From positions 1-64,000 of the forward strand of contig JAYSWN010000188.1 of NCBI GenBank assembly GCA_043718025.1: a stretch of DNA of 64,000 nt, given 5' to 3'. The position numbers and the translations under genes are program-made. This document shows, piece after piece, positions 658 to 47,723 of the stretch. The notes beneath the pieces are model-generated. The model had not been told where the DNA came from. It saw only the letters and a program-made list of their open reading frames with translations, and made no database searches. Each line of letters starts with the position of its first letter. Within the stretch, counting starts at the first letter, position 1. The stretch comes from Pseudomonadota bacterium. GTDB lineage: Bacteria; Bdellovibrionota; FAC87; UBA2466.

Positions 658-691
658 AGATACCTCGACGGGTTTCCATTACAATTTGCCA

Positions 692-2950
692 ATGCAACAG
701 AGCAAAACGGCTAGCGGCATGAAAAACATCGGAACCTCTGCCGTGGCAGCCTTGTATCTGTTGCATTGGCCAGGAGCTTATCACAGCACTCCAGTTCGCT
801 GGACGGTTAGCGCTTTCATTTTCTTAAACCTAATGCTGTGGCTGGTGGACAATGTTATGCGTCCTCGCCAGTTCTCTTTTCTACTACCGGAGTTTTCGGC
901 CAGAATCGATGGCGAAACCGCGGCGGCTAATGAGCGACTCGTAATGGCCGCAACGCTGTTTCTCTTTGTTTGTGGTTACCTTTACCTGCGCACGCTAGGT
1001 CACAATTATTTCAATCAGGATGATAACTTTTCGCAGTTCGGCCCAGTAATCCTGCAGGGCGCCACCAGCCTCATTGAAAAAGGGGTTTTTCCCAATTGGA
1101 ATCCCTTTCAATTCATGGGGGCACCCATTGCGGAGGTGGGTACCTACGCCCTCACCTATCCCATCACCTATTTGTCGGTCGCCGTGGCCAAGTACGCCCT
1201 AAATGAGCCCGAGGCATGGGCCGACGTGTTTTTTCTAATCCACGCCGTGCCCGGACTGTTGCTCGCTTTTCGCGTGCTCCGAATTGCCACCGTGACCTCT
1301 GCCTTGTCGATGGCGGGATCTCTCGCCTTTATCTTTTGCGGATACAACCTAATCGCCGGACGTTCTTGGTTTTACATGCTCCCGCTCATGACTTCGCTGC
1401 CCATCATGGCGTGGCTGCTCTTAACCTTAGAAAAATTTTCTTCACGCCGCTGGTTGTGGACGGCGGCCTTGACCACTGGAGTTGGATTTCATTCTGGCAA
1501 TTCGCAAATGTGGTTTTATTGGGTTCTCTTTCTGGGAATGGGTATTCTCTTTCGCCTGTTTACCACCCCACAGCTGGCCGCTAAAGCTGTCATCCGACGT
1601 TCCTTATCTGCGTTCTTGATGGGTTTGGGCTTCGCGATGCCCTTGCTCCTCCCGCAATTGATATTTGTCGCCGGGGTAAAACGATTTCCGCTCGGCTTAG
1701 AACACATTGCGGATAACCTTCCGTCTCTGTTGATCCCCTTCCCCTTTATTGTTGGCAGCTTTCCCAATGGCATAGAGACGGACGACGTGCGTTTCGGCCA
1801 GATTTATTATGCGGGAACCCTATTCACATTGGTGGCCATTTTTCTTACGGCCTCTTACTACGTCGGGTGGCTCAGAAAACGCACTTTAAAAAAAGACCCG
1901 ATCATTGGCCTTTTTCTCTTTCTCGGAGCCGCGGCCTTTATTCTTTCTCTTGGTGAATTCGGCATTTTATGGAGATTATTGTCGTATTTTCCTCCGTTTA
2001 GTCTTTTCTCTCACCCGTTCAAACTGATCGTTTTCTTACACTTCTTTTGGATCGCGGCGGCCGCCCGGTATTTAAGTTCACTGCACTGGCGTCAGGCGTG
2101 GGTTTTTCCGTTAATCAGCCTCTTGCTCACCGCCTACCACTTGAGTCAATGCACCGAAGCAAAGTATTTATTCACCGAAAGGGAATATACATCCTTACCG
2201 CCCCAGCTGATTGAGAAGCTGAAACAGAATGCCGGCGGATCGCACTATTATCGTATTGATTCTAACTCTCCACTTCGCCACAAAGCTGAGGGTTACCTCT
2301 TTTCGTTGCCCCATAACTTTCCGACGGCTTACGGCATTGCGGCCACTTGGGGCTACGATCCGCTGGTAAATTACTCGGCGGCCAACCGGCCTTTATACGA
2401 ATTGTGGACCCGGGCCCGCTGCGGCGATGCCGACGCCCAAAGCCCCCCTTTTAAGATTCATAAACTGTACCTCTGCCCTCCGGGGAAGACTTTTAGCTCA
2501 GAACCACTCGAGAACCTTTTACGAGTCACCGGCGTTAGCTCACGAATCACCTTTCCGCTGAACGGCGGGGAACCCAGAGTGCGGGCGATAAAAGAGTTCG
2601 ACCCAATCGTCTTCTCGCAAAGCGACCGATCCAAACGCTTTGCGTTCTCGCTAGATTTTTCAGGCCTCACCGTAGAAAATTCAAGAGCGACGCAAACTGA
2701 ACCGATCGTGGTCAACTTCTTGTGGCGAAAACCCTTTACGGTTGCCGCCGATGGGCAGAAGCTACCTATTGAAAAAGACGAATGGGGTCGCATGGTGGTA
2801 AAACCCATCGCACCGTGGAAAACGCTTAAGTTTTCTTACCGTCCGCCTTGGGTGCCAGCAGTTGCGCTTGGAATTCTATTTTTTCTGAGCGGGCTTCTTA
2901 CCCTACGTTTTTCTGTTGCTGTTTCTAAAACATTAGAGAGTTCCCCTTGA
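692..2950 (+). CDS. Polytopic membrane protein, YfhO-like / GT-C fold glycosyltransferase candidate
   Basis: Many TM segments; first loop NQDDN followed by FPNWNPFQFMGAP; large soluble loop then C-terminal TM after FSYRPP. Start placed at ATG 692 (6 nt after TACAAT); ORF track starts at 686. Confidence 0.65.
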   Translation: MQQSKTASGMKNIGTSAVAALYLLHWPGAYHSTPVRWTVSAFIFLNLMLWLVDNVMRPRQFSFLLPEFSARIDGETAAANERLVMAATLFLFVCGYLYLRTLGHNYFNQDDNFSQFGPVILQGATSLIEKGVFPNWNPFQFMGAPIAEVGTYALTYPITYLSVAVAKYALNEPEAWADVFFLIHAVPGLLLAFRVLRIATVTSALSMAGSLAFIFCGYNLIAGRSWFYMLPLMTSLPIMAWLLLTLEKFSSRRWLWTAALTTGVGFHSGNSQMWFYWVLFLGMGILFRLFTTPQLAAKAVIRRSLSAFLMGLGFAMPLLLPQLIFVAGVKRFPLGLEHIADNLPSLLIPFPFIVGSFPNGIETDDVRFGQIYYAGTLFTLVAIFLTASYYVGWLRKRTLKKDPIIGLFLFLGAAAFILSLGEFGILWRLLSYFPPFSLFSHPFKLIVFLHFFWIAAAARYLSSLHWRQAWVFPLISLLLTAYHLSQCTEAKYLFTEREYTSLPPQLIEKLKQNAGGSHYYRIDSNSPLRHKAEGYLFSLPHNFPTAYGIAATWGYDPLVNYSAANRPLYELWTRARCGDADAQSPPFKIHKLYLCPPGKTFSSEPLENLLRVTGVSSRITFPLNGGEPRVRAIKEFDPIVFSQSDRSKRFAFSLDFSGLTVENSRATQTEPIVVNFLWRKPFTVAADGQKLPIEKDEWGRMVVKPIAPWKTLKFSYRPPWVPAVALGILFFLSGLLTLRFSVAVSKTLESSP

Positions 2951-3744
2951 AAAAAAGCTACCTGCGCTACTACGCCAAGCCCCAAGCCTCGGCTCCGCTT
3001 GTTTTTTTTAAAGATGCCTTTTTCGCGAAATCGAAATGGGAGCGGTTTGCTGGTCTGAACCGACAAAAAGACTACTTGTGGCTGCAAGAAAATTTGGAGC
3101 TCATGCCGCTGCACGAAAGACTCAACACTCTATTGTGGGAGGCAAAAGTAAACTGGGAGAGTCTTGATTACGGTTACGGCTACTTTTACCAAAGTCTCGC
3201 CAAAATTGGCGTTACCGGATTCCGAAACACGGAGAAGCGGGTACAGTTGATGAACCTACCTACGCGGCTCAAAGAGCTGCGAGTTCTAGAAATTGGCTGC
3301 AATAGCGGGTTCTTATCGGCCGAAATTTCTTCGGCGGTGAGCTCGGTAACCGCCTTCGACGTTAACCCCTACCTCATTAAGATTGCAGAAGAAACATCGC
3401 GTCATCTGGGAATTGCCAATACTCGGTTTAAAACTTCGTCGTTCGAAGATTGGCCCACCGCGCAGAAGTACGACGCAGTGCTTTCGTTCGCCAATCACAG
3501 CACGCACGATCAAAATACCAAGCAAAGTCGGGGTGAATTTTTTACGAAGTGTGCGAAACTATTAGATGTAGGCGGAATTCTTCTTTTTGAATCTCATCCG
3601 CCCGAAATAGAACCACCCTTTGCGCTGGCGGAAAGCTTAGAGCACATCAGTAAGCACTTCCACATTGAGGAACAAAAAGTGAACTCTTACGGTCCAGGCT
3701 TAGACGCCGGACGCACGTTTGTCGCCGCGCGTAAGACACCTTAA
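2947..3744 (+). CDS. Class I SAM-dependent methyltransferase
   Basis: Motif I VLEIGCNSGFLS, AFDVN, YDAVLSF, LDVGGILLFES; TTGA overlap with upstream gene. Confidence 0.88.
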   Translation: MKKSYLRYYAKPQASAPLVFFKDAFFAKSKWERFAGLNRQKDYLWLQENLELMPLHERLNTLLWEAKVNWESLDYGYGYFYQSLAKIGVTGFRNTEKRVQLMNLPTRLKELRVLEIGCNSGFLSAEISSAVSSVTAFDVNPYLIKIAEETSRHLGIANTRFKTSSFEDWPTAQKYDAVLSFANHSTHDQNTKQSRGEFFTKCAKLLDVGGILLFESHPPEIEPPFALAESLEHISKHFHIEEQKVNSYGPGLDAGRTFVAARKTP

Positions 3745-3816
3745 AAAAAGTATCTCCTCGGCTATCAAGTTACCGCCGCAAGCTACCGAAAAGATTGGGA
3801 CTATTTTTAAATTCCC

Positions 3817-6800
3817 ATGCCCTCTAAAACTAATCAAAAACATCACGTGATCATTTTGGGTGCGGGCAGAAGTGTGCGCGGCAACGTGCCTTCCGTGGTG
3901 CGGGTAATGGATTGGTTAGTGACGGCCTTCCAAACTTTGCCCCGGGCCCGTTTCTCATTGGTATCGGGATTCAATGCGAATTTCCTCATAGAGCAATTTC
4001 CCGATGCCGAAATTTTTTTCAATCCCCAATGGGAAAGCACCGGACCGGTATTTTCGCTCTCGCTGGTGCCGTTGGAAATTAAGTCGCCCACTTACATTTC
4101 TTATGCCGACATCGTCTTTAGACCGAGCTTGGTGCAACAGATGGAAAACCAAACTACGGACGTGGTGCTGGCGGTCGATTCTCGCTGGCGAAATCGGTAC
4201 CAGGGCCGTGCGACATCGGCATTACTAAAGGCAGAACGAATTAGTTTCAAGCGCAAGGGGTCGCCCTTTTTAGATCCTAACTCTGCTCCCGACGAGGCCG
4301 ATGCAGAATTCACCGGGTTGGTCCGCTTTTCGCCGAAAGCCGTAGCCCGGATAAAGAATCTTTTAAAATTAAAAACTAGCTCGCTGTCGACTACTCTGCC
4401 GCAACTCATCGACCAACTTATTCTTAGTGGCTTGAGCTGGAGCACAGTAGATAGCCAAGGTGACTGGGCCGCTCTCGATGCCGCCCAGGATCTCGCGCGA
4501 TTTGTTTTGGGAACTAAAGCCGAATCGCTCCAGCGACTTAAGCCTTTGGTACGTGCCTCACTCATACCCGAGTCAGTTAGCTTCACCGCTAAAGACTGGA
4601 AAAAAAACCCCACTAAGGTCGTCAAAGAAATTCGAAGTGCATTCTCGTTTGGTAACTTAATCGTACGCAGCAGCGCCCTCAATGAAGACAGTTGGAAACA
4701 ATCATTGGCGGGTAAGAACCTTAGCGTCGCCTCGGTACCGAGCCGAGACACAGGCAAAATTGAAAAAGCGATCGAATTAGTTTTAGCTTCGTACGATGAT
4801 CTAGCCCTTGATGACCAAGTTCTGGTACAGCCAATGTTGGAAAACGTTCGCTGTAGCGGAGTCGTGCTGACGCGGGCGCAGGACGGCCGGGCCCCCTACT
4901 ATGTGATCAGTTACGACGACACCACCGCTAGTACCAGCAGCGTAACCTCGGGTAACGGCGCCCACATAAAAACGCTTTATCTCCTACGCGACACCAGGTT
5001 TTCCGACGATTTTCCAAAGCCCCTTTGCGATGTCATTGAAGGGGTCAAAGAGATTGAGAATCTGGTCGGCCACGATTCACTGGACATTGAGTTTGCCATC
5101 ACCGACGACGAACGGTTATGGCTACTTCAGGTCCGTCCGCTTACGGCGGGTAAAGAGATTCGCTCACTCGAAGACAATCAAATACGCGGCGCTATCAATT
5201 TGGCGTCGCGATGGTTTAGTGGCTACCAGACAGCGCACCCCTCGTTGCTAGGAAAAAAAACCATTCTCAACGTGATGTCGGACTGGAATCCAGCCGAGAT
5301 CATTGGCACCAAACCAAAGCCACTTGCCTTTAGTCTTTATCGCCACGTCATCACCGACGAAACTTGGGCCACTCAACGGGCTGAGTTCGGCTACCGTGAC
5401 GTGCGACCGTGCCCGCTGATTGTCAGTGTGCTTGGTCACCCTTACGTCGATGTACGCGCCACTTTCAATTCGTTTGTTCCAGCCGCACTTTCGCAACAAC
5501 TGTCTCAAAAACTCGTTGAACACTACCTCCTGCACTTGCGTGTCGAACCGGAGCTTTACGACAAAGTGGAGTTTGAAATTCTTTTCACCTGTTTGGCGTT
5601 TGATTTTGATCATACTTCAAAGCGCCTCACCGATTCCGGCTTTACCGTGCAGGAAACAACGCAGTTTCGTGCGGCGCTTCGCGATTTGACCGAAAAAGGA
5701 ATTACCCGTTGTGCCAGTGACTTCGCGGCAATACCGGAGCTCGCGGCCCGCCAGGCTCGCGCACGCGACTCTGCCCTGCCGCCTTTGGCGATGGCTTTTT
5801 TACTGCTCGAAGACATTCGACGTTTGAGTGCGCTAAATTTTGCGCACCTCGCGCGCCAAGGTTTCATTGCCATGACTCTCTTGCGGTCGCTTGAAAAAGT
5901 TGAGGCCATCACCGCTAACGAGAAAGAGGCATTTTTAGCCTCCCTGATTACGGTCTCCGGCCAAATGAGAACTGACGCCTGGCTGGTGAAAGAGTCAAAA
6001 AAGACTCGCGCTGAGTTCATCGCCACCTACGGCCATTTAAGGCCGGGAACTTACGACATCACTTCCAGCCGTTACGATGTCGACCCTAGCCGTTTTCTCG
6101 AACCGTTAGTTGAGGAGGCAGTCGCCCCGTCGACCATCGAAACCTTTGTTTGGAATGCAAAAACCGCTGATAAAATCGCAATGGCCTTAGAAAAGGCGCG
6201 CCTGCCCTTTACTCCGCAGTTTCTTGCTAACTATTTCAAACAGGCCATTGAAGGACGAGAACTCAGCAAGTTTCAATTCACTAAGGGCCTGAGCGACGCC
6301 CTAGAAATGATTGCCCAATGGGGACAAAGTTTGGGGTTTTCTCGTGAAGAGTTAAGCCACGTTTCAATCTCTCAACTGCTGAGCTTGCGCGAACCCATAT
6401 CTGCCCAACCCGCAGAGGTGGTCAAAGCTATGTTAACGAGAGGCCGAGCGAAACAGGAACTGCTTCATTCGCTCTGCCTTCCGACCCAAATCTTTTCGAA
6501 CGATGACTTTTTTGGCCACAAGCAAATGACGGCAGAGGCCAATTTCATTACCCGGCAACGTGTTTGCGCAAACGGGGTGCACTACGAAAGACTTGGCGAA
6601 GCCCAACAAGATTTGCGCGGCCATATCATTCTGATTCCAAGTGCCGATCCTGGCTACGACTGGATCTTGGGTCAGGGCATTTCTGGGCTGATCACCATGT
6701 ACGGCGGCACCAACTCGCACATGGCGATTCGCGCGGCCGAGTGCCGTCTGCCCGCCGCCATTGGCGTCGGTGAGGTACTGTTTTTAGAGCTGACTCACGC

Positions 6801-6882
6801 TAGGCTTATCGATCTGGACTGCGCTAATCGGCGGGTTGCGGCGGTAAGCACCGAAACTACCAAACAAAAGAAAGCGGCTTAA
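3817..6882 (+). CDS. Fusion: N-terminal nucleotidyltransferase-like domain + L-glutamine kinase (Cj1418-like; PPDK-type ATP-grasp, central domain, phosphohistidine domain)
   Basis: N-term IILGAG, FNPQW, YADIVF; ATP-grasp LIVRSSALNED, LAG, VLVQPM, SGVVLTR, LDIEFA, LLQVRPL; MSDWNPAEIIG; YGHLRPGTYDI; C-term ADPGYDWI and YGGTNSHMAIRA (phospho-His); neighbours match Cj1416/Cj1417. Confidence 0.85.
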   Translation: MPSKTNQKHHVIILGAGRSVRGNVPSVVRVMDWLVTAFQTLPRARFSLVSGFNANFLIEQFPDAEIFFNPQWESTGPVFSLSLVPLEIKSPTYISYADIVFRPSLVQQMENQTTDVVLAVDSRWRNRYQGRATSALLKAERISFKRKGSPFLDPNSAPDEADAEFTGLVRFSPKAVARIKNLLKLKTSSLSTTLPQLIDQLILSGLSWSTVDSQGDWAALDAAQDLARFVLGTKAESLQRLKPLVRASLIPESVSFTAKDWKKNPTKVVKEIRSAFSFGNLIVRSSALNEDSWKQSLAGKNLSVASVPSRDTGKIEKAIELVLASYDDLALDDQVLVQPMLENVRCSGVVLTRAQDGRAPYYVISYDDTTASTSSVTSGNGAHIKTLYLLRDTRFSDDFPKPLCDVIEGVKEIENLVGHDSLDIEFAITDDERLWLLQVRPLTAGKEIRSLEDNQIRGAINLASRWFSGYQTAHPSLLGKKTILNVMSDWNPAEIIGTKPKPLAFSLYRHVITDETWATQRAEFGYRDVRPCPLIVSVLGHPYVDVRATFNSFVPAALSQQLSQKLVEHYLLHLRVEPELYDKVEFEILFTCLAFDFDHTSKRLTDSGFTVQETTQFRAALRDLTEKGITRCASDFAAIPELAARQARARDSALPPLAMAFLLLEDIRRLSALNFAHLARQGFIAMTLLRSLEKVEAITANEKEAFLASLITVSGQMRTDAWLVKESKKTRAEFIATYGHLRPGTYDITSSRYDVDPSRFLEPLVEEAVAPSTIETFVWNAKTADKIAMALEKARLPFTPQFLANYFKQAIEGRELSKFQFTKGLSDALEMIAQWGQSLGFSREELSHVSISQLLSLREPISAQPAEVVKAMLTRGRAKQELLHSLCLPTQIFSNDDFFGHKQMTAEANFITRQRVCANGVHYERLGEAQQDLRGHIILIPSADPGYDWILGQGISGLITMYGGTNSHMAIRAAECRLPAAIGVGEVLFLELTHARLIDLDCANRRVAAVSTETTKQKKAA

Positions 6883-6887
6883 ACAAG

Positions 6888-7517
6888 ATGAAATTGGGCA
6901 TTACCCAAAGGGTGGACTCCAGCACGGCGGAAAGACGCGATTGCCTAGCGCAAGAGTGGAACCGGCTTCTCTCCTCGCTGGGTCATATCGCCATTGCGCT
7001 TCCTAACCGCGCCGGACTGGCACGCCAATGGGTTAGCGAACTAGGCCTTGAGGGAATCATTTTGAGCGGCGGCAACGACGTGCCTTCCGCACCCGGCGCA
7101 AAAGATTTAGTTCCCGAGCGCGATGCGCTGGAGGGTGAACTGATCGAATTGTGCGTAGAGCAGGCATTGCCCCTGCTTGGCGTCTGCCGCGGCATGCAGA
7201 TGCTGCTTTCCCATTTTGAAATAAAACCGCGCCCGGTGCAAAAACACATCGGCACTACGCACGCACTGATTTCGGTGTCTGATCTTCCTGGCTTTAACGA
7301 AGGTGAGTTAGTGAATAGCTTTCATCAGTACGGTTTTGCCGTAGACCAAATCGTCGCCCCTTGGAAGGTCCTGGCCACGGCTACCGACAAAACCGTCGAG
7401 GCCGTCAAGCACGAAGCTCTGCCGCTGTGGGGTATTCTGTGGCACCCTGAGCGTAGTCCCGACATTTTACCAAATAGGACTCTGCTCAATGCAATTTTCA
7501 CACGGAGTCAGAAATGA
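6888..7517 (+). CDS. Class I glutamine amidotransferase-like (peptidase C26) protein, probable gamma-glutamyl-CDP-amidate hydrolase (Cj1417-like)
   Basis: GITQRVD, ERRDCL, ILSGGND, LGVCRGMQ (Cys nucleophile), VNSFH, WHPER (His-Glu); gene context. Confidence 0.85.
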   Translation: MKLGITQRVDSSTAERRDCLAQEWNRLLSSLGHIAIALPNRAGLARQWVSELGLEGIILSGGNDVPSAPGAKDLVPERDALEGELIELCVEQALPLLGVCRGMQMLLSHFEIKPRPVQKHIGTTHALISVSDLPGFNEGELVNSFHQYGFAVDQIVAPWKVLATATDKTVEAVKHEALPLWGILWHPERSPDILPNRTLLNAIFTRSQK

Positions 7518-8293
7518 AAGCAGTTATTTTGGCGGCCGGGCAAGGCACACGTTTGTATCCTTTGACGGCCGAAAAACCTAAATGCCTGGTTGAACTCTGT
7601 GGAAAACCGTTGCTCGAACACCAACTGGCGGCACTGGGCACCGCCGGCATTACTGACGTAGCCATCGTATCGGGGTACAAAGCCGAACTTTTAGAAAAGT
7701 ACCCGCTGACTCATTTCTACAATAAGGCCTACGCCATTACCAACATGGTCGCCTCGTTAATGACTGCCCGCGCTCTCTTCGACGGCGAAGACGATGTTTT
7801 AGTGATTTATGGCGACGTGGTTTTCGAACAAGCCGCGATTCACGCGCTACTAAAACCAACGTACCCAGTCTGCGTGGCAATCAACACGCAATGGCTTTCG
7901 CTATGGAAAACCCGCATGGCCGATCCGTTAAGCGACGCCGAAACGCTCAAGGTGAATGCCCAAGGCTTTATTACCGAGCTTGGTCGCAAAGCCAAAAACC
8001 TCGGTGAAATTCAAGGCCAGTACATGGGCCTATTCTCAATTGCCGCTTCGTCAGCTAAGCAGTTCGTGAAAGAGTTTGATGCCCTAACCCCTTCCAGTCT
8101 GGTTGAGGGTCGGCCTAAGAACCAAATGTTTATGACCGGTTTTTTACAACGGCTGATTGAACAAGGCTGGAAAATGAGAGGCTGCCCGGTGCCGGGCGGC
8201 TGGCTAGAGGTCGACACGGTTGAAGACCTACGTGGCTATGAAGCCTTAGCCAAAACCGGAAAACTTGAAAAATTTTGGAGCTCCAACCGGTGA
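7514..8293 (+). CDS. LicC/phosphocholine cytidylyltransferase-family enzyme, probable CTP:phosphoglutamine cytidylyltransferase (Cj1416-like)
   Basis: ILAAGQGTRLYPLTAEKPKCL, TNMVASL, YGDVVF, DPLSDAETL, WLEVDTVEDL; ATGA overlap. Confidence 0.85.
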   Translation: MKAVILAAGQGTRLYPLTAEKPKCLVELCGKPLLEHQLAALGTAGITDVAIVSGYKAELLEKYPLTHFYNKAYAITNMVASLMTARALFDGEDDVLVIYGDVVFEQAAIHALLKPTYPVCVAINTQWLSLWKTRMADPLSDAETLKVNAQGFITELGRKAKNLGEIQGQYMGLFSIAASSAKQFVKEFDALTPSSLVEGRPKNQMFMTGFLQRLIEQGWKMRGCPVPGGWLEVDTVEDLRGYEALAKTGKLEKFWSSNR

Positions 8294-9465
8294 AAACCGT
8301 CACCAACTTTTTCCGCGCGCTTTCAGAAGTGCGACGATTCAATTCTCTGCCGCTTGAGCAACGCGAATTCGTTTTCTACGCAGAAGATGCCGGAAGTTAC
8401 GCTCACTTCTCCGAGATGCTTCAGAAACTGACCGGTGAGTTCGGAAAGACCGCGTGTTACCTCACCTCAAGCAGTTCCGATCCGATTTTGTCTTCGCCAC
8501 CCGCCGGCGTCCGCCCCTTTTTCATTGGCCATGGCATCGTCCGCACCTACCTTTTTCAAACCCTAAGGGCGGGTGTGATGGTGATGACCATGCCCGATCT
8601 CGAAACTTTTCATCTCAAACGATCTCGCTACCACCCAGTGAAATATGCATACGTCTTTCACTCGATGGTTAGCACTCACGCGATCTACCGGGAAACCGCG
8701 TTCGATCACTTCGACGCGATCTTCTGCGTTGGTGACCACCACATTATTGAAATCAAAAAACGAGAAGCACTTTTTTCGCTACCGGCCAAACAGCTGTGTC
8801 AATTGGGTTACGGCAGACTCGACAGCTTGCAAAGGCAAGCCAAGGGCGAAGCTAGGCCAGCAAATGATCCCTTAAGGATAACCATTGCTCCCTCGTGGGG
8901 CCCCGATGGCCTATTGGAAAATCACGCCGAAGTAATTGTAGAAAAACTATTGGATTATGGATTTGGAGTAACGTTGCGTCCGCACCCCCGCACCCTGCGC
9001 AGCCATCGAAGTACTATTGAAAGCTTAGCGGCAAAACACTCCGCCAATCCCTGTTTCAAGCTCGACGTTAGTTCGCATAGCGATCAAACCTTTCGAACGA
9101 CCGATGTGCTCGTCTCGGATTGGTCGGGCGCGGCGTTTGAGTTTGCCTTTGCCTTCGAACGGCCCGTACTTTTTGTAGAGGTGCCGCAAAAAATTAACAA
9201 CCCCAACTTTGCAAAACTCGACCTAGAGCCAATTGAAAAAAAACTACGCCACCAGCTCGGAACGGTATTGGCGCTCGGCGAACTCCCTCACCTCGGGGCG
9301 ACAATCGCAAAGTTGCACGCCGGTGCGGAAGAGTTTCAGAAAGGCCTTCGGAAGGTTAGGGCCAAAACCGTGTATAATTTAGGTAGCAGTGGACGGGCCG
9401 GGGCCCAATACCTTGTCGAGATGTCCGCAACTTCACTCTCAAAGCGCCAAGCTCATGCAAAATGA
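8290..9465 (+). CDS. CDP-glycerol:glycerophosphate transferase (TagB/TagF) family protein
   Basis: YVFHS, GYGRLD, IAPSW, LRPHPR, DVLVSDWSGAAFEFAF, RPVLF; start set at GTGA overlap 8290 (ORF track 8275). Confidence 0.8.
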   Translation: MKTVTNFFRALSEVRRFNSLPLEQREFVFYAEDAGSYAHFSEMLQKLTGEFGKTACYLTSSSSDPILSSPPAGVRPFFIGHGIVRTYLFQTLRAGVMVMTMPDLETFHLKRSRYHPVKYAYVFHSMVSTHAIYRETAFDHFDAIFCVGDHHIIEIKKREALFSLPAKQLCQLGYGRLDSLQRQAKGEARPANDPLRITIAPSWGPDGLLENHAEVIVEKLLDYGFGVTLRPHPRTLRSHRSTIESLAAKHSANPCFKLDVSSHSDQTFRTTDVLVSDWSGAAFEFAFAFERPVLFVEVPQKINNPNFAKLDLEPIEKKLRHQLGTVLALGELPHLGATIAKLHAGAEEFQKGLRKVRAKTVYNLGSSGRAGAQYLVEMSATSLSKRQAHAK

Positions 9466-9928
9466 AACAATTTCGGCCAACATCCCAAGCCGCTACCTAT
9501 TGCAAAAGGTGACTGAACAATTGCCGTGTGAGCCTTCGGGTACTGACTGGGCCAACCCCGTCTGCATTGCCAAAACCGCTCGCCACTTGGCCGAAAAAAC
9601 CCGCGAAGAAGATCCGTCGAGCTTTGCCGTGGCCGATCGCTTTTGCCGCCTGCTGTCACTTCACCGCACCCTACATAGTGCGTATGACGAGCAATGGAAA
9701 AAAACGGGCCGGGCCGAGTTAAACGAAGCCGAAGCGTGGCGCGTCTTGGTGGCGAGCCTACTCTCCTTATCCCTTAAGGGCGCCCGAATAAATAAAGGGC
9801 GTTCGCTCAAATACCTAAATGCCACCTTCACCGCCCTCGATGCGTGGGAACGCGTGATTCCCGACACCGAAACGCAACGAGAAATGGCGGCGCTCGCCGA
9901 TGAAGTATGGGAACAGGTTATCTCGTGA
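9455..9928 (+). CDS. Hypothetical helical protein, coupled to downstream formyltransferase
   Basis: ATG 9455 overlaps end of upstream gene; stop overlaps next start; no motif recognised with confidence. Confidence 0.65.
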   Translation: MQNETISANIPSRYLLQKVTEQLPCEPSGTDWANPVCIAKTARHLAEKTREEDPSSFAVADRFCRLLSLHRTLHSAYDEQWKKTGRAELNEAEAWRVLVASLLSLSLKGARINKGRSLKYLNATFTALDAWERVIPDTETQREMAALADEVWEQVIS

Positions 9929-10800
9929 GCCAATTAAAAAAGCTTAACCTGTCTGTGCTCGCTTACGATGGCCCGATGGCGAGGATATATCTCGAAGTTT
10001 TGAAAAATGAAGGGTTCGTTCCTGAACACGTTTGCTTAATGGTACAGCGCCGTTGGTTTCCGGCGGGCCGAATTCTGAGTTGGCTGCCCCAATCCTACGT
10101 TCAGCGACTGGCCAAGTGGCGCCAAGCTACGGCGATAAACCATTGGCCACGGCGTTTACTGCCGCTAGCCCATTACCAAGAAACACTGGAAGGGCTTAAC
10201 CAACTTTATCCCGACGCCACCAAGATTTTTGCGAGGGCGTACCAAAAATTTTCGTTTTCGGACTTCGGTGCCAGCTATTCCGAGGTGGTAACCGACGGCT
10301 ACCAAGATCCCTCCCTAGTTGATCGGATTAACAAGCTTCCGGGCAAGCACCTGCTTTTTACGGGGGGGGGAATTGTGCCCGAAAAACTGCTGACCAGGTC
10401 GAACAAAAAATTTGTGCATGTGCACCCTGGTTTTTTGCCGGAAGTGCGTGGCGCCGACGGGCTCTTGTGGTCAGCCCTTTCGCGCGAAAAGCTGGGCGCT
10501 TCGGTATTTTTTTTGGATGCCGGGATTGATACCGGCGAAGTGCTATACCGCCAAGAAGTGACCCCAATTGCGCTGCCGCTGCCGCTTAATGAAACCAGTG
10601 ACAACAACCTCTACCGTACCCTCTTCAGTTTCTATGATCCCTTGCTGCGGGCCGTCACGCTGACCAACTTCCTAATGCGGCACCCCGAAATCACCAACGT
10701 TACCCCAACCCCGCAGGCAACCGATATCGGAACCACCTTTCATTTCATGCACCCCCGCGTTCGCGCCGCGGCGCTGCAAAAACTCTTTTTCTCCGCTTAA
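9925..10800 (+). CDS. N10-formyl-THF-dependent formyltransferase family protein
   Basis: HVHPGFLPEVRG, ASVFFLDAGIDTGEVL; start at GTGA overlap 9925 (ORF track 9907). Confidence 0.8.
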   Translation: MSQLKKLNLSVLAYDGPMARIYLEVLKNEGFVPEHVCLMVQRRWFPAGRILSWLPQSYVQRLAKWRQATAINHWPRRLLPLAHYQETLEGLNQLYPDATKIFARAYQKFSFSDFGASYSEVVTDGYQDPSLVDRINKLPGKHLLFTGGGIVPEKLLTRSNKKFVHVHPGFLPEVRGADGLLWSALSREKLGASVFFLDAGIDTGEVLYRQEVTPIALPLPLNETSDNNLYRTLFSFYDPLLRAVTLTNFLMRHPEITNVTPTPQATDIGTTFHFMHPRVRAAALQKLFFSA

Positions 10801-10845
10801 GCTTCTTTGCCTTACCGACGATAAATAAACAATAGGTGGTCGACG

Positions 10846-11103
10846 ATGAAATGTTCCTTTCTCGCATTAATTTTTATTGCGCTGTGGCAATCTGATTCAG
10901 CTTACGGCTACATTGACCCGGGTCCTAGTCACCTCATCATGCAGTTTCTCGTAGCAATCCTGGCGAGTAGCGCTTTCTTCATCCGACGCATTTTTACTTT
11001 TGTAAAAACTGCCATGTCCAAACCCAAAACTAAAAACTCAGCAAAAAAAGCCGATGGAAAAAGCACAAAAAAAAACGAAAAGGTCCCGCGCAAGGCCGCC
11101 TAA
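10846..11103 (+). CDS. Small membrane protein: signal peptide, YIDPG motif, one TM helix, Lys-rich tail
   Basis: RBS AGGTGG; hydrophobic N-terminus ending SAYG, then YIDPGPSHLIMQFLVAIL, basic tail. Confidence 0.75.
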   Translation: MKCSFLALIFIALWQSDSAYGYIDPGPSHLIMQFLVAILASSAFFIRRIFTFVKTAMSKPKTKNSAKKADGKSTKKNEKVPRKAA

Positions 11104-12832
11104 TCGCTTAAAGGGCTTGTTAACCGCCCTTTCATCGCTTTTCTCCGACCGACTCAATGCAGCGGCCGCTTTTTCGCTCGCCCATCTACTATTTCTACGC
11201 CTCTGGATCGATCACGCTATTCCGCTTGAGAATGCCTATTTTGACTACACCCGTAAAAATGCCTCGTGGCAAAATTTGGCGGGGCTGTGGCTGGCCGCCC
11301 TGGTTTTATTTGTGCCGCTAACGTACCTCTTCGCCTGCGCCACCCGCACCACAAAAACGCTTGTCGCCAAAAGCGCGGCGTGGACGATCGTCCTGCTATT
11401 TCTGGCGCAGGCCATTTTAATTTGCAACGTCATGGGGCAAACCGGCACGGATCCGTTTCACTCAAAAAATCTTTTTTTTGGATCGCTTTCTGCAGATACC
11501 TTATGGCTCATCTTAGGCCAAAGTACCTTGCTGCTGTTATGGGCACTTCTACGGCACTCGCTTAGATTGATTCTGGCTACCCGCATGGCTCTCGTGCTCA
11601 TTGCCCCCTTCCCTTTTTTTATATCTGCGCAAATTTTGGCTGACCTCTTCAATTCTCATCCGCGCTCATCGCTGGCTGGCGAGGTGACTCCTCCCACTGA
11701 AAAAACCAAACTCAACCGTACCGTGGTGATAGTTTTTGACGAACTGGATTACCATTTGGTCTTTGAGAACGAAGCCAAACTTTCCCAATACCCTAACTTT
11801 TTGCAATTCAAGAAACACAGTCTTTCGGCCACCAATGCGTTGCCGCCCTCACAAAACACCTTGCTTACCCTGCCTTCGTATTGGTTCGGCAAAAACGTGA
11901 TTGCGTTGAGCGTAAAATCGCGGGAAGCGCCGCAGTTTATGTTTTTTGGAGAAACAAACGACCGCGGACTGGCCTCAGCGGGGCAACTTTTTTCTCAAGC
12001 CGCCGGGTACGGGGCCAACACAGAAATTGTGGGGTGGGCACACCCTTACTGCGAATTATTTGGACGACAAGTAGCGCGTTGCCTTCAGTCTTCGTATCTA
12101 GAGCCAAATAATGGCGCCGGGGTGGGCGACTCTTTCGTGCAGGCAATCAAACGATCTTCAGAGGTACTCTCACTAATGGGGATCAGCGAGCCCACCATGG
12201 TTCGCCGCGCTCATCTTGAGGTTTACCAACTTTTTTTAGAACGCGCCCTGAGCGCCGTAGGAAATGCTTCGCGAGATCTGGTTTTTCTTCACCTTCCCGT
12301 TCCCCATGAACCCACTATCTACTCTCGCGCAACAAAAAACTTTGTCGCGGGCGGGGCCCTCGTCGATGCCTCCTACGATGACAATGTCGCGCTGGCCGAC
12401 GAAATGCTGGGTTTACTCAAGCGCGAAATGCAGACGAGAGGGCTGTGGGAAAGCACCAGCGTACTTTTAGTTTCCGATCATGCCTACCGCCACACGGCGA
12501 GAGGCGAGTCGGGTGGCGATCAGAACAATCGCTTTAGAGTTCCCTTTTTGCTAAAGCCCGCGCTAACCGAACCTCCCGCCGCAACTTACGAACTGCCTTT
12601 TTCAACCCGGGTGGTTGGGCCTCTGACGCTGCAATTACTAACTGGAAAAACGCTCACGATTGATTCAATACGGACTTGGCTTAATCAACAAAGAGGCTTC
12701 GATCGTGCGTTTATCACCGCCGCCTACGCCGGGGGCAAAAAGCGGTGCCTCCACCATCCCTTCACCTCCCAACCCGAGCTTTTTTCAATGCGCACCGAGT
12801 TTGACCCTGACTGCGCCCGCACTAATCGCTAA
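11054..12832 (+). CDS. Membrane-anchored alkaline-phosphatase-superfamily protein (LtaS/EptA/sulfatase-like)
   Basis: About 5 N-terminal TMs; VIVFDEL, NTLLTLPS (Thr nucleophile position), FLHLPVPHEP, YDDNVALAD, VSDHA, VPFLLK; true start may be TTG 11117. Confidence 0.75.
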   Translation: MEKAQKKTKRSRARPPNRLKGLLTALSSLFSDRLNAAAAFSLAHLLFLRLWIDHAIPLENAYFDYTRKNASWQNLAGLWLAALVLFVPLTYLFACATRTTKTLVAKSAAWTIVLLFLAQAILICNVMGQTGTDPFHSKNLFFGSLSADTLWLILGQSTLLLLWALLRHSLRLILATRMALVLIAPFPFFISAQILADLFNSHPRSSLAGEVTPPTEKTKLNRTVVIVFDELDYHLVFENEAKLSQYPNFLQFKKHSLSATNALPPSQNTLLTLPSYWFGKNVIALSVKSREAPQFMFFGETNDRGLASAGQLFSQAAGYGANTEIVGWAHPYCELFGRQVARCLQSSYLEPNNGAGVGDSFVQAIKRSSEVLSLMGISEPTMVRRAHLEVYQLFLERALSAVGNASRDLVFLHLPVPHEPTIYSRATKNFVAGGALVDASYDDNVALADEMLGLLKREMQTRGLWESTSVLLVSDHAYRHTARGESGGDQNNRFRVPFLLKPALTEPPAATYELPFSTRVVGPLTLQLLTGKTLTIDSIRTWLNQQRGFDRAFITAAYAGGKKRCLHHPFTSQPELFSMRTEFDPDCARTNR

Positions 12833-15010: not shown

Positions 15011-16246
15011 ATGGGGTACTCAAAAGTCTCGTTAGCCTTGTCTGCATTGGCTCTAGCGGTATTTAGCGCGCCGGCATTTACCGCCGATACCTGTCCCTCC
15101 GCAAACGCTATCACCTCTAAATGGGATCTGTGGGCGCGGGGCACCTGCCTGCGTGGCGCTAACCTTTGGCAAAAGGTGATCGACGCGGACATCGACGGCA
15201 ATGAGCTGGGCAACGAAGTGGTAGGCCCAACCTACGATCAGGCCAACCTAAACCGCCTGGCCGCCACCGGCGCCAATTACGCCAATCTCTCTTTTCCTGG
15301 CCTCATGGCTGAAAAACCAAACGCGAAAGGACAATACGTCTGGCGCGAAGACATCGCGGTGTACTTAGATAAATTGATTGAACGAGCTCGCCAGGCCGAC
15401 CTATACGTTGTGATCAGTTTTCGTACGGGGCCGGGGCGCAGCGAATCTGGTTTCGGTGATGATGCCAGTGCCGACCATTCCGTTTGGAAAGACTCGCGCC
15501 CGCAAGCGGCGTGGGCCCAGATGTGGAAGAAAACGGCCGCCCGCTACCGCAATCACGCTAACGTAGTTGGTTACGATTTGATGGTTGAGCCGAATGCCAA
15601 CGACGTGCTTTTAAAAATTTGGGAGCCCGATACTTTTTTTAAGAAATATAAGAACACCACTTACGACTGGAACCCTTTTGCTCGCAAACTGATCGCCGAA
15701 ATCAGAACCAACGACAAAGAGACCCCGGTGCTCGTCGGCGGCATGAACTACAGCAGCCTCGACTGGCTAACGGCCACCGAAGCCACGGCCGATCCCAAAG
15801 TGGTTTACGCCGTCCACAACTACGAGCCTACCAACTACAGCCACCAGATTGCTAGGAGCGGCGTAACCTATCCCGGTAACTTTTCTCCCGATGGAGACTC
15901 CCCAACCACCGTGGATAAAAAATGGCTCGCCAAAAAACTGAGTGTCATTTCGCAATTTCAAGGCGCGCGTCGGGCCCCGGTGGCCGTGAATGAGTTTGGG
16001 GCCATGCGCTGGGCCCGCGGCGCCGATCAATATTTTAGAGACTCAACCGATCTGTTCGAAACCATGGGGGTCAATCACGCGGTCTGGCTGTGGGAAACCT
16101 CACTCAAAATTAGCTGGGATGAATTCAATTTTAAATACGGCCCCAGCGCCAAGTCGCACGCCGATGTGAACAACAGCGCCCTTTTGCAGGCAATTCGCAC
16201 AAACTGGTCGCGCAATCACTTGCGCCCCTCGCAAACTCACTGGTAG
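15011..16246 (+). CDS. Secreted glycoside hydrolase family 5 (cellulase family)
   Basis: Signal peptide; LRGANL, VVGYDLMVEP (acid/base Glu), VHNYEP, VAVNEFG (nucleophile Glu), VWLW. Confidence 0.82.
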   Translation: MGYSKVSLALSALALAVFSAPAFTADTCPSANAITSKWDLWARGTCLRGANLWQKVIDADIDGNELGNEVVGPTYDQANLNRLAATGANYANLSFPGLMAEKPNAKGQYVWREDIAVYLDKLIERARQADLYVVISFRTGPGRSESGFGDDASADHSVWKDSRPQAAWAQMWKKTAARYRNHANVVGYDLMVEPNANDVLLKIWEPDTFFKKYKNTTYDWNPFARKLIAEIRTNDKETPVLVGGMNYSSLDWLTATEATADPKVVYAVHNYEPTNYSHQIARSGVTYPGNFSPDGDSPTTVDKKWLAKKLSVISQFQGARRAPVAVNEFGAMRWARGADQYFRDSTDLFETMGVNHAVWLWETSLKISWDEFNFKYGPSAKSHADVNNSALLQAIRTNWSRNHLRPSQTHW

Positions 16247-16252
16247 TGGGGG

Positions 16253-17413
16253 TTACTTAGCAGAAAGGCGAGCCAACTCTTGTAGCCGGCGTTTGGTGTA
16301 GTCACTCCAAGACAAACTTTTTTCAACCGTGGCCCGGGCCTTAGTCCCCATCTCAAAAAGCGCCTCCTGGTTGTGAAAAGCCCATTCAAATTTTTCGATC
16401 AGCGCGTCACTACTTTTCGCGGCCACCACAAAACCGTTTTGCCCCGACTGAATCAGCTCTTCGCTACCGGTGTTAGCGCTACAAATCACCGGGCTGCCGG
16501 AAGCCATCGCCTGCAAAGCCACCTGGTTAAAGCCGTCGTGCACCGACGGCAAACAAACCACCGAAGCCCGGCTTAGCGCCCTTACAAAATCAATTCCTTT
16601 TTTCGGTCCGTAAAAGTTAATGCGCGAATCCGGCCAACGAGAAAGTAGCGACGCCATCTCGGCACTCACCGAGCCCACTAAATGCAGTTCGGCGTTTGGC
16701 TCTTTCCACTGACGAAAAGCCTCCAACAAATAAGCGACCCCTTTTTGTAGTGAAATATTTCCGGCGTAGAGAATGGTAAATTTGGGGGCCTTATTATTTT
16801 GCGGGGAGAAAAAATGAAGATCGGCAGCCAAGGGATGGTGCAAGAGTCGCGATGACGAAAACCCCTTTTGCACGAATGAGTTCAGCGCAAAACGGCTCGG
16901 CAGCGAAATATAGTTGGCGGCCGCGTACTCATTTTTCTCTTTTTCAATCATTTGCGGGTGCGTGCCCACAAACCTAAGACCGAAGCGCGCGTATTCGCTT
17001 TGCAACAACTCCTGCTGCACTTCAATGTGGGCGCTGTGCCGCTCAAGAATCGTTTTTTGACCCAACTCCCGGGCACGCGCCAAAGAACGCTCGGAATTTC
17101 CAGACCAGCCAATAAAAAAGTCAGCGCCGGCTTTTAGTCGCTCGGCCGCCGCGCGGTCAAACCAGTCATTAAAAAGAAACTGGCCGTTTGAGAGTTTGAT
17201 CACCTTCGAAAGCTTTTCGCGCGCCCGGCGCGCCAACTCAATTCGTGAAAGCGTCGTGATACCGGCCCCTTCCAACTTCCAGCGGCGCAAAAACCAACGT
17301 GGGTACGGGGTAATCAGTTGGTGTAGCGCCCCAGCGTTCTGCAGGGCGGCCGCAAATTCAAAAGCGTGAAACCTTCCGTTTACCGAAAGCGAGACTTTAG
17401 GAGTGGTGGGCAC
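16253..17413 (-). CDS. Glycosyltransferase family 4
   Basis: GRFHAF, LYAGNISLQKGV, LPSVHDGFNQVALQAMASGSPVI, NGFVV. Confidence 0.9.
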   Translation of the reverse strand: MPTTPKVSLSVNGRFHAFEFAAALQNAGALHQLITPYPRWFLRRWKLEGAGITTLSRIELARRAREKLSKVIKLSNGQFLFNDWFDRAAAERLKAGADFFIGWSGNSERSLARARELGQKTILERHSAHIEVQQELLQSEYARFGLRFVGTHPQMIEKEKNEYAAANYISLPSRFALNSFVQKGFSSSRLLHHPLAADLHFFSPQNNKAPKFTILYAGNISLQKGVAYLLEAFRQWKEPNAELHLVGSVSAEMASLLSRWPDSRINFYGPKKGIDFVRALSRASVVCLPSVHDGFNQVALQAMASGSPVICSANTGSEELIQSGQNGFVVAAKSSDALIEKFEWAFHNQEALFEMGTKARATVEKSLSWSDYTKRRLQELARLSAK

Positions 17414-27448: not shown

Positions 27449-30789
<3,341 letters not shown>

Positions 30790-40233: not shown

Positions 40234-41376
40234 TTAGATGTACTCGCCACGTTTGATCTTATCGACGATGATTTTTTCTGGCATCTGCGGATCGCGTGGG
40301 TCCACCATAAAGTACGATTGCTGCTCACAACGCCGCTTATTTTTCAGCAACCATTCGAGAAGCTTTGAGACCCCCCGGTTCTTTTTATCGCGGAAGAAGG
40401 GATCATTTTTTAGAGCGTCGGCCGCCTTTTTTAAAGCGCGCCCTTCCGAAGGGTCAGATTCTTTAACTGGATAATCACTCAGGTCGAATTTTTTTATGTC
40501 TTCGGGCAGTACGCCCAAAAACCGCACTTCGGGGGCACTAAAATCGGAATTACGAATTAAACTCGCGGCCGATCCCGCTTTTAACGTGCGGTAAATATTC
40601 TGCAGAGTGTAGGCGTCGAGGTCGCCAAAGAAGTAGATGGGCACCGACAGTTCGTCAGAAATCAGTTTGCACCAACCACGAACCGCATTGCTCGGAACGC
40701 CCTGCGCGCCCATCAATATACAGTTGTGCCGTTTGCAAAAACCGTTGGCCACGAGCGTATTCGCCGTACCTTCGGATTCAACCACCAAACAAAAATCGAT
40801 TTTCTTTTTGGCCTTAAGCCGTAGGCTTTGCGGCCGGTTTTTAGGCTGAAAAGGGGTTGTTCCCAATGAGCTTAAATCGACCACCGCTTTGGTACCGTCG
40901 AGCAGCGTTTCGGTAACCACCAGTTGATTAGAATAGGTTTGGCCGCCACGATCGTTGGCATAACAGTTTAACTCTTCGCGGTAGCATTCCAGCATTTCGC
41001 AGATGAAATCGATGATCGAATCACTTTCGGTCTGGTCGCCAAAATCGAGCGGGCCCAGGTCGGGAGAGTGTTTCACTTCACCTTTGCAGATGTAATAAAT
41101 TTCACGCTTGGTATTCACCGCGCCGGTTTCTAAATTTCGGAGAAAAATCTCTAAAACAAAGATCGCCCGCGACATCTTTTGCACCGATGCCACATTGAGT
41201 TCCGTGCGAACTTTTTTGCCGGCAGGGGTTAAATAACCCACCTTCGGGTTGTATTCCGAATTATCTAAAGAACATTTCACCGCTTCTAAAACCGGCCGGC
41301 GCGCATGTTCTAAATCGGTGAGCAAACGCTCGCACAAGGTTTTAGAAAGTTTTGGGATATCGCTAACTTTTTCCAT
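40234..41376 (-). CDS. top6A: DNA topoisomerase VI subunit A
   Basis: TKREIYY (catalytic Tyr), DQTESD, TOPRIM VVESEG, QGVP, FGDLD, EQQS. Confidence 0.92.
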   Translation of the reverse strand: MEKVSDIPKLSKTLCERLLTDLEHARRPVLEAVKCSLDNSEYNPKVGYLTPAGKKVRTELNVASVQKMSRAIFVLEIFLRNLETGAVNTKREIYYICKGEVKHSPDLGPLDFGDQTESDSIIDFICEMLECYREELNCYANDRGGQTYSNQLVVTETLLDGTKAVVDLSSLGTTPFQPKNRPQSLRLKAKKKIDFCLVVESEGTANTLVANGFCKRHNCILMGAQGVPSNAVRGWCKLISDELSVPIYFFGDLDAYTLQNIYRTLKAGSAASLIRNSDFSAPEVRFLGVLPEDIKKFDLSDYPVKESDPSEGRALKKAADALKNDPFFRDKKNRGVSKLLEWLLKNKRRCEQQSYFMVDPRDPQMPEKIIVDKIKRGEYI

Positions 41377-41378
41377 GA

Positions 41379-43148: not shown

Positions 43149-43291
43149 GTGCCTTCTCTTTGTTGTTAAACCAAGCCAATAAGACTCAAAAAAAGCCGGC
43201 GCCGTAGTTTTTGCGCGCCACTTCAGAACTAATGATACTCGAGAATAGGGTATCAAGGGGAAACGAGGCAAGCTCGCTCTCCCTCAAAAAT

Positions 43292-47565: not shown

Positions 47566-47723
47566 ATAAATGAGTGCCAGGCTTATACTCCATAACACCC
47601 ACTTAACGCAATGCAGCATTGTTTATACTTGTGCCTGCCCTTACCGCTTAAGTTTCAAATAACTTATTTATTTTCAATTAGTTAAACTAAAAAAGTGTTT
47701 CGGCTGCTCTCTTTGCACGGTCT

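Follow-up and report, generated by a model that had tools for sequence, protein, structure and literature searches.

A widespread bacterial gene cassette joining predicted phosphoramidate donor genes to a TagF-fold transferase and an LtaS-like membrane enzyme

A gene cassette within positions 686-12832 of the stretch analysed here (the window: 64,000 nt, positions 1 to 64,000 of contig JAYSWN010000188.1, assembly GCA_043718025.1) is a genuine and conserved variant of the phosphoramidate pathway, widespread though apparently undescribed, and it likely decorates the cell envelope with a phosphoramidate group. The source genome is 4.14 Mb in 234 contigs and is 92.4% complete. Ten open reading frames (ORFs), all on the plus strand, are found at this locus and are named g1 to g10 in order (Table 1). 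In the preferred reading, g3-g5 would make cytidine diphosphoramidate (CDP-amidate), g6 would transfer the phosphoramidate straight from CDP-amidate, and the group would decorate the envelope; taken whole, this reading is evenly poised between right and wrong.

In the Campylobacter jejuni pathway for O-methyl phosphoramidate (MeOPN; Taylor and Raushel, 2017-2018), Cj1418 is reportedly the glutamine kinase, Cj1416 the cytidylyltransferase and Cj1417 the hydrolase, while Cj1415 is said to be a 3'-kinase, Cj1419/20 the methyltransferases and Cj1421/22 the transferases. Kinase, hydrolase and cytidylyltransferase genes together with a gene of the adenosine 5'-phosphosulfate (APS) kinase type make up the Campylobacter layout. 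The window likewise has an adjacent kinase, glutamine amidotransferase (GATase)-fold hydrolase and LicC-like nucleotidyltransferase (NTase) of the same families, and a methyltransferase dependent on S-adenosylmethionine (SAM) is present. It differs in several respects: the source genome lacks an APS-kinase-type 3'-kinase, an NTase-like domain is fused to the N-terminus of the kinase, a TagF-fold transferase replaces the step that follows the logic of 3'-phosphoadenosine 5'-phosphosulfate (PAPS), the methyltransferase is of another family than that in APS-kinase-type cassettes, and g7/g8, a microprotein gene, an LtaS-like gene and a GT-C gene are added.

The g3 product has 1021 amino acids (aa), and its residues 224-1010 match NF004508/PRK05849 over model positions 4-788 of 789, with 882.5 bits against a cut-off of 501. 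Phosphoenolpyruvate (PEP) synthase models score this protein at 43 bits or less and a rifamycin phosphotransferase model at 17 bits, which bears out an earlier sequence-only reading that had placed the protein encoded from position 3817 with Cj1418. The hydrolase-like and cytidylyltransferase-like genes of that reading do lie side by side. The PF00391 swivel domain lies at residues 935-1003, and its GGxNSH motif (G963, G964, N966, S967, H968) is invariant in 23 sequences; H968 we take to be the phospho-carrier His. A PDB search with the kinase gave no match. JGI labels g3 homologues "glutamine kinase", and many homologues bear the label "choline kinase". The best NCBIfam match of g4 is NF045546 (130.4 bits; next family 40 bits), and its GVCRGMQ and WHPE motifs supply the Cys-His-Glu triad of class I GATases. 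For g5, the best PDB match is LicC (1jyk, E 1e-13), the signature loop is intact (AAGQGTRL...EKPK), and identity to the single NTase of other cassettes is 33-52%. The order g3-g4-g5, with the GATase between kinase and cytidylyltransferase, is found here and in most loci examined. Kinases of APS-kinase-carrying cassettes score 930-942 bits on NF004508 (g3, 882), and on NF045546 the six GATases examined from cassettes with an unfused kinase reach 94-123 bits (g4, 130); because these scores are alike, the core of the window is as close to the Campylobacter-type models as are the APS-kinase-carrying cassettes. It is probable that g3, g4 and g5 make CDP-amidate, and they would do so from glutamine, adenosine triphosphate (ATP) and cytidine triphosphate (CTP), as in Campylobacter.

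The APS-kinase family PF01583 has 0 matches in the whole source genome (92.4% complete), with control matches in 11 of 14 genomes. A 3'-kinase would not be needed here, because g6 would take CDP-amidate directly: the phosphoramidate would pass to a membrane-bound hydroxyl acceptor without 3'-phosphorylation, with cytidine monophosphate (CMP) as the leaving group. That g6 transfers phosphoramidate in this way, with CMP leaving, is the somewhat favoured view. The g6 protein passes PF04464 (31.9 bits against a gathering threshold of 22.1), and a 21-sequence profile matches TarL, TagF and Cps3D at E 1e-4 to 1e-3, with the APSW, RPH and SDWSG motifs aligned. Its AlphaFold2 (AF2) model has a predicted local distance difference test score (pLDDT) of 92.5, and Foldseek ranks 1-10 are all TagF (E 6e-13 to 3e-11), followed by Cps3D; identity to TagF-type structures is 13-14%. 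Residues H129, H135 and H237 are invariant in the 21 sequences; H237 (of RPH) aligns with the His of LRMHY in TagF. Two His residues are essential in TagF-like enzymes, according to an excerpt of PMC11924219 that cites Schertzer 2005. With the CDP-glycerol and CDP-ribitol phosphotransferases TagF, TarL and Cps3D, g6 shares the fold, the donor-site motifs and a predicted mechanism in which a hydroxyl attacks the distal phosphorus of a cytidine nucleotide and displaces CMP; it differs in being a single 396-aa unit without extra polymerase domains. It has no transmembrane segment. A single transfer rather than polymerisation would be expected, because the predicted donor has no hydroxyl to extend.

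The kinase search scored 7997 candidates, of which 5082 are relatives at E ≤ 1e-3; among the 120 relatives listed, the majority have the length of a fused protein, about 1000 aa. A relative is encoded in at least 867 species genomes, and the analysis used the best 80 loci. By tblastn these contain the g3 kinase (80), the g3 N-terminal domain (70), g4 (69), g5 (74, including cross-matches to the fused domain), g6 (34), g8 (24), g2 (11), g9 (1), g10 (1), g1 (0) and g7 (0), and iterated profiles raise the counts for g7 to 22/80 and for g9 to 24/80. When the loci are sorted by kinase fusion (60-nt rule), 47 are fused, 30 are unfused and 3 lie at a contig end, with at least one locus (L041) mis-sorted. 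The two classes differ in gene content: TagF-like genes are present in 31/47 fused and 2/30 unfused loci, g7 in 20/47 and 2/30, g8 in 22/47 and 2/30, g9 in 22/47 and 1/30, and the g2-type methyltransferase in 9/47 and 0/30, whereas APS-kinase-like genes occur in 1/47 fused and 12/30 unfused loci, the other methyltransferase family (cluster 5) in 0/47 and 20/30, and Sulfotransfer_3 in 0/47 and 6/30. The six Sulfotransfer_3 genes lie in unfused, APS-kinase-type cassettes (L051, L053, L078, L079, L081 and L084) and are a candidate transferase for the 3'-phosphorylated donor.

The kinase phylogeny follows the same division. A FastTree tree of 76 kinase domains (no bootstrap, midpoint root) contains two clades with 99% support, one of 46 fused kinases plus L010 and L029 and the other of 27 unfused kinases plus L083; L029 ends at a contig edge, and L010 shows a full-length kinase match. 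The window kinase branches with a Phycisphaerae metagenome-assembled genome (MAG; L008), L006 and Actinomycetota, and the tree does not follow taxonomy. Two exceptions to the split are L082, a fused-kinase locus with two APS-kinase-like genes, and L083, whose fused kinase branches in the unfused clade. In L006 (1099-7780), microprotein, fused kinase and 1003-aa LtaS-like genes lie in a row; no GATase, g5-type NTase or TagF-like gene is found in the 10 kb downstream, and the contig ends 1.4 kb upstream.

With respect to the gene neighbourhood, joint recurrence of kinase, hydrolase, cytidylyltransferase, TagF and formyltransferase genes had been put forward as a check, and genes of the g2-g10 types do recur with the fused kinase in other phyla. 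The ten ORFs are real genes rather than chance: homologues of g2-g10 are found in synteny there, and g1 has homologues too. Recurrence with the core extends to the TagF-like, formyltransferase-like, methyltransferase, peptide and LtaS-like genes; the GT-C gene g1, which had been counted among the accessory genes, is found in 0/80 loci. The kinase is present in 7 of 201 sampled genomes of its own phylum, 5 of 32 of its own family and 0 of 3 other genomes of the genus, and the cassette is patchy and probably mobile: horizontal spread is likely because of this patchiness in the phylum and because the kinase tree ignores taxonomy. A recent island was also considered. GC content (guanine plus cytosine) is even across the window, with no anomaly at the cassette, and so gives no sign of one; patchiness and the tree nonetheless point to horizontal spread.

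A second search, in metagenome contigs, used only the TagF-like gene as its seed and gave 518 relatives. Among the best 80 loci, which were retained, 23 have the kinase, 13 have PEP mutase, 4 have an ATP-sulfurylase-like gene, 1 long locus has none of these donor genes, and 39 are too short to tell. Phosphonopyruvate (PnPy) decarboxylase and/or an iron-containing alcohol dehydrogenase (Fe-ADH) accompanies PEP mutase in 10/13 loci, and in six of the 13 a PnPy decarboxylase-like gene, Fe-ADH and a LicC-like NTase are all present; PEP mutase (Ppm) is fused to an NTase in L160 and L162. Loci in which the module adjoins PEP mutase, a phosphonate version of the cassette, are L108-L115, L142, L144, L149, L159, L160, L162 and L164. 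The microprotein and the LtaS-like gene accompany the g6 type in all three donor settings. In the metagenomic loci L139, L147, L152 and L161, which have neither kinase nor PEP mutase, a TagF-like gene and a microprotein gene lie directly upstream of the ATP-sulfurylase-like gene; L147 has a pyruvate-kinase-like gene in addition, and the LtaS-like proteins of L147 and L152 are those most similar to g10 of the window. This setting may represent a third kind of donor.

This sharing of the module between donor settings is the best indirect support for the view that g6 takes a small phosphorus group activated with cytidine, because LicC-like cytidylyltransferases are known to serve in phosphonate tailoring (excerpts of PMC6697681). 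In the Ppm-PntC clusters described there, as predicted for the window, such an enzyme activates a small phosphorus compound for cell-surface tailoring, and it is beside Ppm, Ppd and Fe-ADH genes that the window-type TagF-like/microprotein/LtaS-like module occurs in 13/80 loci. The window differs in that its donor genes are predicted to make a P-N rather than a P-C bond, and the transferases named in those excerpts are LicD-like; a word search of PMC6697681 for "TagF", "LtaS" and "sulfatase" gave 0 occurrences.

Several observations weigh against the preferred reading. The likeness of the core to Campylobacter proteins rests on NCBIfam models, of which NF004508 is titled "hypothetical protein", and g4 falls under the equivalog cut-off of NF045546 (130 against 250 bits), although this cut-off looks narrow to Campylobacter relatives, since the six GATases of unfused, APS-kinase-type cassettes also score just 94-123 bits. 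The domain fused to the kinase is a further difficulty: residues 1-223 of g3 are 23% identical to g5 (BLASTP, E 2e-9), and the family profile matches the GlmU nucleotidyltransferase domain (E 3e-6), but the signature loop of the family, GAGxPxxGxxPSAL, lacks the Arg and Lys that are usually conserved there. The window copy of this domain has no Pfam match at E up to 10. In addition, the 80 genome loci were the top scorers for a query of the fused type, and the sample is biased accordingly. A TagF-like gene is absent within 10 kb in 16/47 fused loci (some on short contigs), and because of these loci other transferases may serve; three core carriers of the same family have no g6, g7, g9 or LtaS-like gene within their 20-kb stretches. 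Finally, the route across the membrane is conjectural: the predicted location of g6 is cytoplasmic, while that of the g9 motif and the g10 domain is outside.

Table 1. Features of the cassette in the window.
Feature	Description	Position	Strand	Basis or remark
g1	Polytopic membrane protein, GT-C glycosyltransferase fold	686..2950 (ATG 692 alternative start)	+	Foldseek of AF2 model
g2	Class I SAM-dependent methyltransferase	2947..3744	+	Methyltransf_25/31/11
g3, N-terminal domain	Nucleotidyltransferase fold, fused to kinase	3817..4485	+	Paralogue of g5, degenerate signature loop
g3, kinase domain	Cj1418-type (predicted L-glutamine kinase) with PEP-utilizer swivel domain	4486..6882	+	NF004508, PF00391, PF01326
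g4	Hydrolase with the class I glutamine amidotransferase fold (predicted gamma-glutamyl-CDP-amidate hydrolase)	6888..7517	+	Peptidase_C26/GATase (PF07722/PF00117), NF045546
g5	LicC-like cytidylyltransferase (predicted CTP:phosphoglutamine cytidylyltransferase)	7514..8293	+	NTP_transf_3 (PF12804), LicC
g6	TagF-fold phosphotransferase	8290..9465 (longest ORF from 8275)	+	PF04464, Foldseek
g7	Small helical protein without known family	9455..9928 (longest ORF from 9389)	+	Partner of g8
g8	Formyltransferase-fold protein with altered catalytic triad	9925..10800 (longest ORF from 9907)	+	PF00551, PseJ
g9	85-aa membrane microprotein	10846..11103	+	Signal-like segment, Y-I-D-P-G motif, one transmembrane helix (28-46), basic tail
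g10	Membrane-anchored alkaline-phosphatase-superfamily enzyme, LtaS/EptA type	11054..12832	+	PF00884

In the preferred reading, g6 would load the group, perhaps onto a lipid, on the cytoplasmic side of the membrane, and g10 together with the Tyr microprotein g9 would deliver it on the outer side to a glycan or lipid of the envelope. Loading on a membrane carrier followed by outside delivery would resemble the use of phosphatidylethanolamine by EptA and of phosphatidylglycerol by LtaS, and on this analogy it is offered tentatively. Residues Y22 and D24 of g9 are invariant in 22 sequences, and the protein has no Pfam match at E up to 10. Of the 24 loci (among 80) in which a profile detects g9, 21 also have g6 and 19 an LtaS-like gene; the pairing of g9 with g10 rests on gene neighbourhood. 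The g10 protein passes PF00884 (34.2 bits against 25) and has at least 3 N-terminal transmembrane segments. Its family, found in 22/80 loci (a YidC copy is found in 10), has D229, T269, H413, D475 and H476 invariant in 20 sequences; by analogy with LtaS/EptA-type enzymes, these are presumably the Thr nucleophile and metal ligands. The g10 profile matches sulfatases (the top PDB matches), LtaS/LtaP and MCR-1. In common with LtaS, EptA (MCR-1) and OpgB-type enzymes, g10 has N-terminal transmembrane segments and an outward alkaline-phosphatase-fold domain with the invariant Thr and metal ligands; it differs in its low identity to them, in a profile that tops with sulfatases and in having a Tyr microprotein as companion. 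A variant occurs in Pseudomonas brenneri DSM 15294 (L015, 7844-9937), where the LtaS-like protein has a C-terminal T2SSG (pseudopilin-like) domain.

The microprotein invites comparison with DltX, the acyl-shuttle microprotein of D-alanylation. Both have an invariant Tyr near the outer end of the transmembrane segment and are encoded beside transferases, but the Y-x-D-x-G of g9 is at the N-terminal side, whereas the FxYxxF of DltX is at the C-terminus (excerpt of PMC12148441); the cassette also lacks an MBOAT/SGNH pair. A covalent role for the Tyr of g9 is conjecture. Extending the comparison, the TagF-like enzyme, the Tyr microprotein and the LtaS/EptA-like enzyme might form a donor-agnostic machine that loads cytidine-activated phosphorus head groups (phosphoramidate, phosphonates and perhaps the third kind near ATP-sulfurylase) on a membrane carrier inside and hands them to envelope polymers outside, with the invariant Tyr as a covalent phosphoryl shuttle, as DltX is for D-alanine; this is a long shot.

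Alternatively, with the same donor, g6 could act within the cell and put the phosphoramidate straight on its final acceptor, either an undecaprenyl-linked glycan or a nucleotide sugar, leaving g9 and g10 to a separate job such as moving, trimming or anchoring the polymer. Cj1421 and Cj1422 presumably act directly on the final acceptor, TagF is generally known to act on lipid-linked glycan acceptors at the inner face, and the lack of a transmembrane segment in g6 fits such a role, as do the 12 of about 33 TagF-like loci without detectable g9 and the GT-C genes that adjoin the cassette here and in L021 and L026. Yet g9 and the LtaS-like gene track g6 (21/24 g9 loci with g6 and 19/24 with the LtaS-like gene), and the g6/g9/g10 trio is kept when the donor genes are replaced by phosphonate genes; direct placement is unlikely.

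Tailoring of the transferred group is the predicted task of three further genes: g2 would O-methylate it, and g7/g8 would carry out another step. The g2-type methyltransferase, present in 9/47 fused-kinase loci, does not match the one in APS-kinase-type cassettes significantly (E 0.06). No Pfam match (E up to 10) and no atlas match was found for g7, whose only invariant residues are Y77 and N122; the profile finds it in 22/80 loci, each time next to g8 or fused with it, and since both lie in one ORF in several loci, the two appear tied together. They are optional, being present in only 20-22/47 fused loci. The g8 protein passes PF00551 (34.9 bits against 26.1) over residues 156-219 only, and its best PDB match is the sugar N-formyltransferase PseJ (E 8e-10). 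Formyltransferases that use N10-formyltetrahydrofolate have an Asn-His-Asp catalytic triad. In g8, H171-x-H173...D208 is invariant in 11 sequences where PseJ has N-L-H, which makes the N-formylation suggested by the sequence-only reading doubtful: with an invariant His at the site of the catalytic Asn and a Pfam match limited to residues 156-219, g8 was rejected as a canonical formyltransferase and is not filed as one.

These genes bear on a further possibility, that the fused-kinase clade makes some other activated group (CDP-L-glutamine, or an amidate N-substituted with formyl or methyl through g7/g8 and g2), so that the group installed is not plain or O-methyl phosphoramidate. The fused kinases do form a clade of their own with an extra NTase-like domain, their methyltransferase is unrelated to that of the other kinase class, and they have a conserved formyltransferase-fold partner akin to sugar N-formyltransferases that act on nucleotide-linked amines. 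The GATase is, however, retained in 69/80 loci and scores like that of the APS-kinase class, g8 has no catalytic Asn, and g7/g8 are found in fewer than half of the fused loci; we regard a different group as quite improbable.

A soluble phosphoramidate metabolite (a natural product or signal) in place of a surface decoration is very unlikely. No acceptor has been identified, and P-N natural products exist (excerpt of PMC6429109), but the operon encodes three membrane proteins with outward domains, Pfam and NCBIfam scans found no exporter, nonribosomal peptide synthetase or peptide-ligase gene in 686-12832, and the module is shared with PEP mutase/PntC-like genes of a type assigned to cell-surface tailoring in the excerpts of PMC6697681. 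We give hardly any credence to an ordinary glycerol-phosphate or phosphocholine (teichoic-acid or Lic-like) system with a misread kinase: LicC is the best PDB match of g5, TagF and LtaS are teichoic-acid enzymes, and JGI labels many homologues "choline kinase", but proteins so labelled score 730-814 bits against residues 224-1010 of g3 (the part with 882 bits on NF004508), no choline kinase of the APH fold or TagD-type cytidylyltransferase was seen in Pfam and NCBIfam scans, g6 is a single 396-aa TagF-fold unit, and a GATase has no role in such pathways.

The first gene, g1, was rejected as a member of the conserved cassette (0/80 loci both by tblastn and by profile) and is a local addition; in the source lineage it would act on the acceptor glycan. 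It encodes at least 9 hydrophobic segments and has no Pfam match (E up to 10) and no NCBIfam match. Its AF2 model (pLDDT 84) gives Foldseek ranks 1-13 that are all GT-C enzymes (STT3, AftD, AglB, ALG12, Pmt4, ArnT), with modest scores (E 4e-5 to 1e-2, TM 0.30-0.46, the template-modelling score); the atlas lead was YfhO. Besides its own entry g1 has 14 homologues. D112 and D113 are invariant, an acidic motif that fits the first outer loop of GT-C proteins. The closest g1 homologue (P0122, 53% identity) and the closest kinase fragment (P0037, 61% identity) both have a longest contig of 5068 nt; they may sit on one contig, which would show a link between g1 and the kinase in a near relative. Other GT-C families (AftD-like, PMT_2) adjoin the LtaS-like gene or lie near the cassette in L021 (21155-24397), L026 (22489-24387) and L041 (2653-4377); the hosts are Actinomycetota and a gammaproteobacterial MAG, and L021 and L026 are close kin.

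The sequence-only reading had described ten co-oriented genes with five overlapping junctions, and all five were seen: the stop of g1 overlaps the start of g2 (TTGA at 2947), g4/g5 meet at ATGA (7514), g5/g6 at GTGA (8290) and g7/g8 at GTGA (9925), and the ATG of g7 at 9455 is 11 nt ahead of the g6 stop. Its domain calls held for every gene in Pfam, NCBIfam, profile and fold searches, structure prediction included, with the g6 model matching TagF and the g1 model GT-C enzymes. The remaining gaps in the row are 72, 5 and 45 nt, and a g10 start at 11054 would give this gene a 50-nt overlap with g9. A promoter and terminator scan of the locus gave no signal exceeding that of shuffled sequences. 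The cassette is flanked upstream by a divergent pyridoxamine-phosphate oxidase gene and downstream by a Na+/H+ exchanger gene, and the window outside it consists of housekeeping genes. A GH5 cellulase-like gene, a GT4 glycosyltransferase and a GDP-mannose 4,6-dehydratase (15011-17413 and 28393-29349) are a possible glycan context near the cassette. Further along, both subunits (A and B) of topoisomerase VI are encoded at 40234-43271 on the minus strand, although the genome is bacterial, and a DUF4423 gene lies close by at 46690-47619.

Phosphoramidate decoration is treated as a Campylobacter speciality in the excerpted part of a review (PMC6429109). An unmethylated phosphoramide is present on the lipooligosaccharide (LOS) core of Xanthomonas campestris (excerpt of PMC8042644), and a preprint on Borgs, in the part available, assigns Cj1416-18-like genes to archaeal elements (10.1101/2024.11.05.622173). 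Outside the original Campylobacter pathway papers, no description was found of a cassette that pairs a glutamine kinase with a TagF-like or LtaS-like protein. The combination was earlier held to be new: no published account of it was found, but it is not special to the source genome and is widespread across many phyla.

At least 867 species genomes carry the donor genes, which in one distinct clade go together with another transfer route, in the style of teichoic acids. If the proposed chemistry is true, modification of the envelope with P-N groups would be widespread among soil, marine and gut bacteria, TagF-fold enzymes would have a new class of donor, and the microprotein/LtaS-like delivery module would be common to phosphonate decoration and could be tested in harmless strains that can be cultured. 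Should the donor-agnostic machine also prove true, P-N envelope decoration would be common across bacterial phyla, and the module could be the missing genetics of the Xanthomonas LOS phosphoramide.

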